In this document: positions 3,001-5,786 of the stretch, one piece after another
Layout of the letters: the number at the start of each line of letters is the position of its first letter
Numbering within the stretch: the stretch's first letter is position 1
IMG/VR virus record: IMGVR_UViG_2657244940_000016
Strand: one strand, 5' to 3'
DNA: 5,786 bases
From: a virus
Taxonomy: Duplodnaviria; Heunggongvirae; Uroviricota; Caudoviricetes
Made by a program: the position numbers

Positions 3001-5786
3001 AAGGGTGGTGTCCGTCACCCTGTGGGTGATGGTCCGGATATGTGTCTGCACCTGACAGAGGTCATCCAGATCATCGTCCCGTCGTACCATATCCCGGGCA
3101 GGGTTGAAGGCGTTGGCCGCCACCTCCACAGTCGGGGCCAGAATCGTGTAACCCGCCGCCTGCCGCCAGTTCAGTAACAGTGCAGTCATCATGATCCCGG
3201 CAGCCAGCGTGGACTTCGAGTTTTTCTTGGGGATAAGGATAAACACTTCCTTGATATGGCGAACACCGGTCTGCGCATCGTAGGAGCCAAACAGGGCCGC
3301 CACCAGGTCAAACACCCACGGTGCACAGGACTCCCCGAATGTCGGGCTACCCGGTGCATCCACAATTCGCAGTTGTTTAAAAATCGCCAGGGCATGTGCG
3401 GCCTCGTCCGGATAAATCGGATCCGGAATAATCGACAGCCCCTTTTTCAGGCGCTCTGCCCAGTCCGGGCAGGCTGTGCTCCATACAGGTATCATCCGTT
3501 GCCCTCATTATCGTTATTCACCACCAGTCGGGGTGGCGGTGGCACCGCAAAACGGTTAGCCGCTTTTTTCGCGGCATCACCTTTTGCCGATTTTTTCCCG
3601 GTATCCCCTTTTTTATGGTGCGTGAACTGCGCCAGACGCCAGGCCGCATCCAGTGCCAGTTTCGGATCAATGCAGAGGTTTTCCACCAGGATCCGCCCCA
3701 TGGCTTTCACCGGATCGGGAAGACCATCCTCCATATATTCAATACCAGGAGACATCACCGCGGACGGTGGCATCTCCGGATTGTTTTCGTCCGGCTGTGG
3801 TATTGCAGCCGCCTCACGACGACGGGGTTTATCCTCCTGCTCTGATTTTTTCTGCCGGTAAACAGGAACCTCATCCACCTCCACCGTCTCGCATTGTTTA
3901 CGGGCTATAAACGCAAGCACCTCCGGATCTTTTGCCAGCTGCGAGCCTTTAACCCTGGCGGTCTTCGCCGAATAACCGGCGGCAATGGCTGACGCTGTTT
4001 TGTTTTTCCCGGACATGAGCGCCAGCGCAAATTTTCGTTTTTGCGTTGTCAGCACAGCCTCCTCCCGGGTCCAGAACGCACTCAGCCGGGTATGGTTCAG
4101 CCCATTTTTCCCGGCGTCTCATGCCGCAAATGTTAACTGCTGCCTGGTTAACATTTTCTGAAAAAGCCAGTTAACATTTTTTTCGCGCAACTAAATGAAT
4201 AATAAAGATAAAAACCGCAAAAATGCCCGGACGGCCAGTTAACATGTTAACTGGCCTGAAACGGGAATTTTTTCTCTGCGTGAGAGGGGGCGCGGTGTCC
4301 AAAGCGATCGTTTTTTACGCCGGATGATCCCCCCCCCCGGGTCGGGTTACAGTCCGATGATGTCGTCCGCTCTGCCACTACCTCCGGACACCTCCGGCAG
4401 CGTCGGGTCCGGCATACCACCCGCCGCTTCACGAGCAGACTTTTGTCGATGGCATTCGGTACAGAGCGTCCAGAGATTCGTCTCCTCATTACCACCACCG
4501 AACTGAAGTGCAATTCGGTGATCGAGTTCACTGTCACAGAGGTCAACCACACGACCACAGATACAGCACTGCCCGGCGTCCCTCAGCCAGATATGACGCT
4601 TGAGGGAAACACGTGCACTGCCACTGACACGACGCTGCTCCCCCTTCAGAATATTCACCCGTCGGGTATTCAGTGTTTTGATTCTGCTCTGGAGTGTACG
4701 AAGCTGAGCCATGTAAAATCCCCGTCATATGGCAATCAGTAAAGGAAATAAATATGTCATCGAAAAACCGGACCCGCAGAACCACAACCCGCAATATCCG
4801 TTTCCCCAATCACATGATTGAACAGATCAGCATCGCCCTTGAGCATAAAGGGTCCGGTAACTTTTCAGCGTGGGTTATTGAAGCCTGCAGGAGAAGGCTG
4901 GCAACAGATGCAACGCATCTGCGCCCGGCCAGCATGAAAAATAACGAGAAATGAACGTTCGGTTACAGGAGCAGGTACCCACTGTCCTCCAACAATATTT
5001 CATCTTCATATCCGACGGAACAAGACTTACCCTGCCGGGATGTACAGAATAACAACAGAGTGATAATTAATTTCTGATGAAATAATCAGGGTGCAGAAGG
5101 ACTAAAGATAAACGTTTTCTTCACGCCTTTACACGGCCTGTCCTTCTCAAATCGCCATTTTGCCATCGCCTTTACAACCTGCTCATCAAACAAATGGTGC
5201 GGCTCTGAACGGATAAACTCAATTCGGGTGACAGTACCATCAGCACCAATATCAAACTTCACATCAACCCGTCCCTTTATATAATTTGCCGCTGCATAGG
5301 CCGGATATTGTGGTAATGCCTTAACCAACTGTCGGGGCATATCTGTTTTATGTTGCGTACAGCCCATAACCAGAGAAGACAACAAAATAATTAACGGAAG
5401 ATTTCTTTTCATTTTCATTCCCGGCACAGATAAGAATAAGTCTTATTCTAACAATGCCACCCTGTCGGTCATCAATCCTCTGTTTAATGGCAACGACAAT
5501 TATCCGACTTAAATCACAAATCAGACACATGACATAACAGAGCTTGCGAGGTAACACATCGTCCGGTTTCTTCCACCATCGCACCGGACCAGCGACCATG
5601 AGGGGACAACGCCGCGCTCCGTTAACGCGGTAAACCCCGGTGTGTATCGTTTTTGATTATCCCCGCACACTCGCGCAGAGGAGTCTCCCGGTCGGGCTGC
5701 GGTCTCTGTTAATGCAGGAATACGGCGACAATACCGCGCATGGATAATAAGGTCGCTCAACACACTGGCTGTAATGCAGCGGATAC

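Follow-up and report, generated by a model that had tools for sequence, protein, structure and literature searches.

A probable cos site with a candidate small-terminase repeat array between the HNH and terS genes of a defective lambdoid prophage

What purpose is served by the repeat-rich interval that separates an HNH endonuclease gene from the gene of the small terminase subunit (terS) in a tailed-phage genome? The interval occupies positions 4056-4346 of a 5,786-nucleotide stretch of DNA, here called the window, from the IMG/VR virus record IMGVR_UViG_2657244940_000016 (Caudoviricetes), and the minus strand of the window carries some of the late genes of a lambdoid prophage. A sequence-only reading had proposed that the interval is a cos site with terS-binding repeats or, alternatively, a set of operators. 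The current analysis indicates that it is probably the cos of a lambdoid prophage of the long-tailed Shiga toxin (Stx) phage type, in which a cutting core of HK97 type is combined with an array, resembling the cosB of lambda, for a terS of SF6 type. The layout of the site is like that of lambda cos, its cutting partners are HK97-like and its small terminase is of SF6/SPP1 type. The role of terS as the binder, the requirement for the HNH protein and the direction of packaging are what we infer from this arrangement.

The place of the cut is indicated by relatives with mapped DNA ends. The Stx1 phage Lys8385Vzw, whose terS is 95% identical to that of the window, has been assigned to the cos phages by a PhageTerm analysis of virion DNA, its cohesive ends being of 3' type and reading CGCCCCCCCT at the end of the genome (PMC7946995). 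Its record ends with GGACACCGCCCCCCCT, 59 nt after HNH, and starts with CTCACGCAGAG / CTCACGCAGAGAAAAAATTCCCG, 229 nt before terS. The minus strand of the window reads GGACACCGCGCCCCCT immediately followed by CTCACGCAGAGAAAAAATTCCCG, so that the end and the start of the phage record are the homologues of 4285 and 4284. This places the homologous cohesive end at 4285-4294, within the GC-rich string GAGAGGGGGCGCGG at 4282-4295, and the packaged left end is predicted to start at 4284 and to run toward terS. An independent check is provided by the Burkholderia phage Bcep176, with a terS that is 37% identical to that of the window. Its linear record carries the homologous 10 nt (CGCACGTTCC) at both ends, followed on the terS side by CTCACGCG / CTCACGCGCAGAAAATTTT, with the HNH gene at the opposite end, and they fall in the same 10-nt slot. 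Precise 10-nt 3'-protruding ends are thus assigned to the window by homology only, their 3' polarity being taken from the study of Lys8385Vzw, in which the cohesive-end sequence of this phage group had already been published (PMC7946995). Headful (pac) packaging does not fit the group, as the relatives have defined cohesive ends. Comparison with mapped cos sites of related phages was the check proposed along with the sequence-only reading, and the ends of both phages agree with a cos site between HNH and terS and with a cut in the GC-rich stretch.

The cut lies in a core of about 77 bp (4262-4338) that is conserved at the DNA level across the Enterobacterales and resembles the cos of HK97. The order of its elements is G-run, CGATCGC and then GGACACCGCGCCCCCT joined at the cut to CTCACGCAGAGAAAAAATTCCC. 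Nineteen Enterobacterales loci, from genera that include Atlantibacter, Kluyvera, Enterobacter, Citrobacter, Erwinia, Serratia and Rouxiella, have terS only 33-49% identical to that of the window and almost the same DNA from the G-run through GGACACCGCGCCCCCTCTCACGCACAGAAAAAATTCCC. The segment 4262-4300 is near-invariant in such loci as well as in the satellite-like loci described below, and a run of G6-G10 is kept in the aligned classes. In HK97, G9 followed by ATCA is found about 43 bp left of the right end, and terS starts 50 nt past the cut. The intact homologue of the large terminase (TerL) has HK97 TerL (6Z6D, E=1e-9, residues 84-534) as its only match of solved structure. Based on this spacing and this match, the cutting module is therefore of HK97 type. 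The HNH gene lies directly upstream of cos, 291 bp upstream of terS, and takes the equivalent position in most relatives with recovered upstream DNA and in Bcep176, the satellite-like loci being without it. Its product is expected to be a packaging co-factor.

Two further observations concern the left side of this core. The homology of PPompW prophages (e.g. LC567822.1) to the window extends only to about 4333, a position within the conserved G-run, and ISEc20 of the IS110 family is annotated under the window match; this points to an insertion between HNH and the cutting core. A/T-rich repeats (TGAAATCATTTCA / AATGATA...) are located just left of the G-run in L013, L016, L018 and L020 (the L numbers denote individual loci) and in HK97 (L375, 720-790), and are not present in the window; they may represent a further element of the left arm of cos, possibly cosQ-like.

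Between the cut and terS the motif GTTAACAT occurs five times (4130-4253), in the form of four exact copies of CAGTTAACAT and one 8/10 copy. The search of the whole window for CAGTTAACAT (allowing <=1 mismatch; expectation 0.23, with 0/200 shuffles reaching 4) gives these four exact copies, every one of them intergenic. The 229 bp from the cut to terS contain the 7-mer GTTAACA five times, a number reached by none of 2000 dinucleotide shuffles, and 5/7 copies of GTTAACAT in the 35-kb intact-length relative L001 fall within this single interval. The sites span +34 to +155 from the cut. The five motif copies reported earlier from the sequence hold as five GTTAACAT sites, of which the one at 4145-4154 is degenerate; the perfect 24-bp palindrome (arms 4233-4244 and 4245-4256, 12+12 nt, 100%) and the inverted pair (arms 4128-4137 and 4147-4156, spacer 9 nt) were found as had been described. 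The spacer between the second and the third site contains the A/T-rich element CTTTATTATTCAT, which is retained in L086, L088, L292 and L382 despite the divergence of the surrounding spacer and is a possible bend or host-factor site. The element matches the consensus of the integration host factor (IHF) only with 2 mismatches. No match to this consensus (WATCAANNNNTTR) with <=1 mismatch is found in 4056-4346, and an I1-like site is therefore not claimed. The near-relative alignment of 64 distinct sequences is too shallow to reveal selective conservation alone.

Across separate lineages the repeat sequence differs. It is CAGTTAACAT in the window, L085, L091 and L293; GGTTAACAT, with a GGTGGTTAACATGTTAACCACC palindrome, in L088; TATAAACAT / GTAAACAT ([TG][AT]TAAACAT) in L086, L087 and L382; GTTAACC in L298 and L299; and AAGTTACAC (GTTACAC) in the satellite-like L089 and L090. 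All copies within a lineage switch together and the spacers between copies diverge freely. The positions of the motif from the cut are 34/41/109/132/148 in the window, 35/40/108/132/150 in L086 and 32/41/109/133/143/157 in L088. In the long class, to which the window belongs, Thr32/Val35 of terS is associated with GTTAACAT in 49 distinct intervals and Ser32/Cys35 with TAAACAT. In the short class, described below, Ser32 is associated with [AG]TAAAC in 33/34 distinct sequences and Thr32 with [AG]TT[AG]AC in 13/13, and Trp38 accompanies GTTACAC, the whole association being drawn from about five motif classes with only 3 loci in the GTAAAC long class. Between the GTTAAC and GTAAAC classes TerL is 95.6% identical and 8/56 residues of the terS DNA-binding domain are changed. 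Among further scans, that of viral contigs with terS alignment A1 returned near-identical relatives only, that with a cos-core pattern revealed no further long-class motif, and that of metagenomes gave 4 loci, adding one independent example of the GTAAAC class (L382). Because the repeats change together with the DNA-binding domain of terS, they are most likely docking sites for terS. The earlier description of them as terS-binding repeats is strongly supported by this concerted change, with TerL and the core constant, by the conserved positions and by the satellite-like loci; the binding itself we infer.

In the AlphaFold2 model of the window terS, residues 1-56 have a predicted local distance difference test score (pLDDT) >90, with helices at 19-25 and 33-41. 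These 56 residues make up, at the N terminus, a helix-turn-helix domain of the SF6 G1P type (Foldseek best 4ZC3/2CMP, TM 0.85/0.82), and the comparison with 4ZC3 (SF6 G1P) gives TM 0.85, a root-mean-square deviation of 1.6 Å and 30% identity. Residue 32 stands where the predicted recognition helix (33-41) begins. Pairwise comparison of terS with gp1 of HK97 gave no similarity. The window terS is of SF6/SPP1 type, and is neither Nu1 nor HK97 gp1.

In the mechanism suggested by these features, the HK97-like TerL, aided by the adjacent HNH protein, would nick the core (~4262-4338) in a staggered fashion and would thereby generate a cohesive end of 10 nt, 3'-protruding, at 4285-4294. The terS oligomer would use its N-terminal helix-turn-helix domains, which face outward, to read the five GTTAACAT sites, by which the terminase would be anchored on the correct DNA, and the DNA would be packaged leftward in window coordinates with the terS end first. 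A tentative extension of this proposal, which we hold at somewhat short of an even chance, is a modular cos consisting of a near-universal core read by TerL and HNH and a fast-evolving pair of terS and repeats. A code would then relate Thr or Ser at residue 32 to T or A at base 3 of the GT[T/A]AAC half-site and Trp38 to GTTACAC, and satellite-like elements would exploit it with the core of the helper and private terS and repeats.

The probable origin of the palindrome is revealed by distant 'short' relatives, in which terS starts only about 39 bp past the cut and the start codon lies within a near-palindrome, GT(A/T)AAC-ATG-TTAAC. The palindrome of the window sits exactly at the position of the terS start of the short relatives. 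The terS of the window itself starts about 190 bp beyond the palindrome, and the opening 20 nt of the gene (4036-4055) repeat the ancestral ATGTTAAC start in degenerate form. By its position, the palindrome is the ancestral copy of the putative terS site. With the palindrome at the ancestral start and a degenerate copy at the present start, the E. coli 'long' lineage has thus lengthened the spacer and acquired three further copies. As the near-palindrome spans the start region, the putative terS site of the short relatives overlaps the translation start of terS itself.

Variation around this start has also been observed. Nearly all terS genes of the short relatives L005-L023 (position 2501 in most loci) begin with ATG/GTG-TTA-AC, with TTA as a Leu codon, and the near-palindrome extends as well over the spacer that follows the Shine-Dalgarno sequence. 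In L021 the sequence is GTTAAC-GTG-TTTAC and Leu2 is changed to Phe (Leu2Phe), the two half-site types being swapped. The Morganella-like L297 (IMGVR_UViG_2846902752_000001) carries GTTAAC/GTTAAT repeats about 100-180 bp upstream of terS; these are left of the G-run, upstream of the cut and not between the cut and terS, and represent a different arrangement of the same motif.

The same history would permit the repeats to be non-functional relics of duplications of the terS 5' end, the ancestral ATGTTAAC having been copied as the spacer between cos and terS grew from ~39 to ~229 bp. In favour of this, terS of the short relatives begins with the motif itself (ATG TTA AC), the window gene now begins with GTGCTGACAACGCAAAAACG, a degenerate form of ATGTTAACAGCGCAAAAGCG, and the palindrome is at the ancestral start position. 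Relics are, however, expected to decay independently, whereas the copies stay identical within each lineage and switch together as the spacers diverge, and the short reading frame from the palindrome ATG is not conserved, with a stop after 5 codons in L292. We consider relics very improbable. The same frame, of 24 codons in the window (MLTGRPGIFAVFIFIIHLVARKKC, 4171-4245, minus strand), was also tried as a gene and rejected, as it has 14 codons in L086 and 5 in L292.

A different reading is invited by the A6 and T5 runs that flank the palindrome, namely that it is mainly an intrinsic bidirectional terminator or RNA hairpin, with the other repeats incidental. Such a terminator would insulate the head genes from read-through of the moron and HNH genes in the lysogen, and could coexist with terS binding. 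The RNA of 4195-4290 (minus strand) folds into a stem of 10 bp that is lengthened by CCCG/CGGG and A6/U5 (-27.8 kcal/mol, z=-3.7, 0/200 shuffles equal), and a comparable hairpin with a U-tract occurs in L085, L229 and L088, the version in L089 being built from a different sequence. A consensus terminator scan nevertheless finds none in 3900-5100, and L086 and L382 of the GTAAAC class keep all five repeats with no stable hairpin (-8 kcal/mol). The short relatives have the terS start codon and its ribosome-binding site at this place, and a terminator would leave sites 3-5 and the concerted sequence switches unexplained. As the main function a terminator is therefore unlikely, while a secondary insulating role of the hairpin is possible. 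A search of Rfam (E<=1) gave no match in 4056-4346.

Palindromic and inverted repeats are also typical of operators, and the repeats could accordingly be bound by a transcription regulator such as the DUF3950/YlcI-type protein (4754-4954) or a late-gene regulator, the alternative mentioned in the sequence-only reading. The small DUF3950 gene is about 400 bp away on the opposite strand, and sites 3-4 coincide in part, on the plus strand, with a weak sigma-70-like match (TTAACA-18-TAACAT). Promoter matches are, however, at chance level (2 found vs 1.0 expected). No DUF3950 gene was called in the recovered upstream DNA of L086, L089 and L090, where equivalent repeats persist; terS is the only gene constantly beside the repeats, the motif tracks its helix-turn-helix residues, and the distance of the repeats is fixed to the cut and not to any promoter. 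Operators are for these reasons disfavoured, and we regard them as very improbable.

Several points weigh against the interpretation of the interval as a cos with a terS-read array. The cut positions were mapped in relatives and are carried to the window by homology, and the polarity and the exact cut come from one PhageTerm analysis and the layout of one GenBank record. The association of terS residues with motifs is correlative and phylogenetically non-independent, with few independent lineages, and ATGTTAAC of the short relatives is also constrained by its coding for Met-Leu-Thr. The palindrome of the window folds as a terminator-like hairpin as well, and the centre-to-centre spacings of the sites (8, 68, 23 and 15 bp) have no simple helical phase. 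The terS proteins of SF6 type show mostly weak or non-specific DNA binding in vitro (PMC9611059), and the terS site of HK97 is a single A-tract site at +15..+29 (PMC11331095). The window terS might contact the A-tract of the conserved core (+12..+17) instead of the repeats or in addition to them.

The comparison with known packaging systems places the site between three of them. Its likeness to HK97 includes the gene order HNH - cos - terS - terL, a TerL homologous to gp2, a 10-nt 3' cohesive end (here in the mapped relatives), a G-run and then ATCA on the left (~43 bp from the cut), an A-tract immediately on the right and, in the short relatives, a terS start ~40-50 bp past the cut. It differs from HK97 in its terS (Terminase_2, with an SF6-like helix-turn-helix), which is unrelated to gp1, and in its HNH protein, which is only distantly related to gp74 with a weak HNH-motif match in pairwise comparison. 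The single 15-bp terS site of HK97 at +15..+29 is read without a helix-turn-helix (PMC11331095), in contrast to the array up to +155 found here, and the window does not conform to a gp1-type terS that reads one A-tract site as the DNA emerges from the central channel.

With lambda the site shares a nick site, repeats in mixed orientation (R3-I1-R2-R1 of cosB for gpNu1), an A/T-rich spacer and then the small terminase gene, which is ~200-230 bp from the cut, as well as the packaging of the terS end first, which is predicted here. The five GTTAACAT sites thus constitute putative repeats of the lambda cosB type between nick and small terminase gene. Lambda has a 12-nt 5' overhang and no HNH, whereas the relatives of the window have a 10-nt 3' end and an HNH gene. 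Nu1 is a winged helix-turn-helix protein of another family, the terminase of lambda is of Nu1/gpA type and the TerL of the window is HK97-like, no good IHF consensus was found here, and there is no sequence similarity to lambda. SPP1 and SF6 have the same terS N-terminal DNA-binding fold and Pfam family and have multiple short recognition boxes flanking the cut. They are, however, headful (pac) packagers of Bacillus with imprecise cuts, as against the precise cohesive ends (assigned by homology), HK97-like TerL and putative HNH partner of the site described here. The parallel with lambda cosN/cosB drawn in the sequence-only reading is accordingly retained for the layout and not for the overhang, which with its 10 nt and 3' polarity is HK97-like. 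The HK97-type context that it had also assumed is supported by the HNH gene directly upstream and by 6Z6D as the sole solved-structure match of TerL.

Table 1. Coordinates of the candidate cos site and its neighbouring genes in the window (distances with a plus sign are counted from the cut)
Feature	Positions	Strand	Remarks
TonB C-terminal-domain, lipoprotein-like moron	5086-5427	-	Between lysis genes and HNH
DUF3950/YlcI-YnfO family small gene, moron-like	4754-4954	+	Between lysis genes and HNH
HNH endonuclease	4347-4712	-	PF01844 E=4.8e-7; phrog_589 HNH endonuclease E=1.6e-44
G-run (C-run on plus strand)	4329-4338	-	~35-45 bp left of cut; conserved left-arm cos element
Cos core, cosN-like	4262-4300	-	GGACACCGCGCCCCCT and CTCACGCAGAGAAAAAATTCCCG on the two sides of the cut; A-tract at +12..+17
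Predicted 10-nt cohesive end	4285-4294	-	CGCGCCCCCT on minus strand; by homology to mapped relatives
Perfect 24-bp palindrome, repeat sites 1 + 2	4233-4256	.	CAGTTAACAT / ATGTTAACTG; +29..+52
Repeat site 1/2 copies	4236-4245, 4244-4253	+, -	Exact CAGTTAACAT
A/T-rich element	4195-4207	-	CTTTATTATTCAT; spacer between sites 2 and 3
Repeat site 3	4168-4177	+	Exact CAGTTAACAT; position kept in all long-class lineages
Repeat site 4, degenerate	4145-4154	+	TGGTTAACAT, 8/10; GTTAACAT core intact
Repeat site 5	4130-4139	-	Exact CAGTTAACAT; inverted relative to site 4
terS (small terminase)	3492-4055	-	GTG start at 4055; PF03592 Terminase_2 E=1.3e-8; phrog_641
terL (large terminase), HK97-like	1835-3495	-	PF03354 + PF20441 on two open reading frames
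Prohead protease-capsid fusion, truncated	320-1771	-	

The prophage copy that carries the site belongs to a widespread family. More than 1100 complete E. coli genomes contain prophages with 98% identity to bases 431-5786 of the window, and the HNH-terS-terL block is 95-96% identical to that of long-tailed Stx1/Stx2 phages, e.g. BP-4795, 2851 and 1717. A frameshift near 2032-2068 divides terL into open reading frames of 475 aa and 65 aa, as compared with 553 aa for the intact gene, and the terL of the closest genome is annotated as 'frameshifted'. With terL frameshifted and the protease-capsid fusion truncated this copy is defective, and any action of its cos could be in trans only. Bases 1-430 (a kps fragment and the start of lepB) are unrelated to the prophage and the record is therefore chimeric.

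Some details of this junction and of the flanking genes may be added. A KpsS/KpsC-like capsule-synthesis fragment (PF05159) occupies bases 17-355 and the 5' end of lepB (MANMFALILVIATLVTGILWCV) bases 364-431, the latter being joined at 431/432 to the middle of the prophage capsid gene. The 15 best matches listed from 5426 complete E. coli genomes start at 431. An identity of 16 nt (TTTTATGGTGCGTGAA) is shared by 416-431 and 3611-3626 inside terS. The DUF3950 protein has the look of a ribbon-helix-helix DNA-binding protein, as judged by eye.

Two of the loci with a cos core of the window type resemble satellites, L089 in the E. coli contig DASCXQ010000015.1 and L090 in AATOBA010000003.1. In both, the core is followed by their own AAGTTACAC repeats and their own terS (46-47% identical, phrog_641), and no HNH or terL gene was called in either locus. 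L089 is found in the context of AlpA and a Y1-transposase. L090 has genes for an AAA_25 primase-like product, for terS and for a protein of 307 residues that is similar to the C-terminal half of the helper capsid fusion. This arrangement is expected if the TerL/HNH of a helper reads the core and the cognate terS reads the repeats, and the two loci may represent packaging redirection of cos type. Redirection of packaging by satellites is known from TerS-S of Staphylococcus aureus pathogenicity islands (SaPI), from Rpp of the phage-inducible chromosomal islands (PICI) of E. coli and from the cos-carrying SaPIbov5/P4. L089 and L090 are like the cos satellites SaPIbov5/P4 in carrying a helper-type cos core and like the pac SaPI (TerS-S) in carrying their own terS homologue. 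Elements that pair the shared cutting core with a terS and repeats of their own, as L089 and L090 do and the window does not, were not found described in the literature searched.

For the window itself the outcome is mainly an annotation, that of the cos site of a decayed prophage. The repeat array and its covariation with terS were likewise not found described in the literature searched, and string searches of the literature with the cohesive-end and repeat sequences gave unrelated primer matches only. To our knowledge, HK97 is the only system with a solved specific small-terminase complex. The locus and its relatives form a covariation series, with the same architecture, nearly the same TerL and different helix-turn-helix residues and repeats, which reduces the question of recognition to swap experiments. 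The mechanism of recognition by small terminases has been called 'elusive and controversial' in a 2022 review (PMC9611059). If the modular scheme is true, the series would be a natural set of matched protein-DNA pairs for DNA recognition by small terminases of SF6 type, and the satellite-like loci would be a cos-type counterpart of the terS redirection of SaPI. The site would define the packaging signal of the long-tailed Stx1/Stx2 prophage family, present in >1000 complete E. coli genomes, with relevance for the mobilisation of defective prophages and satellites and for cos-based transduction vectors.

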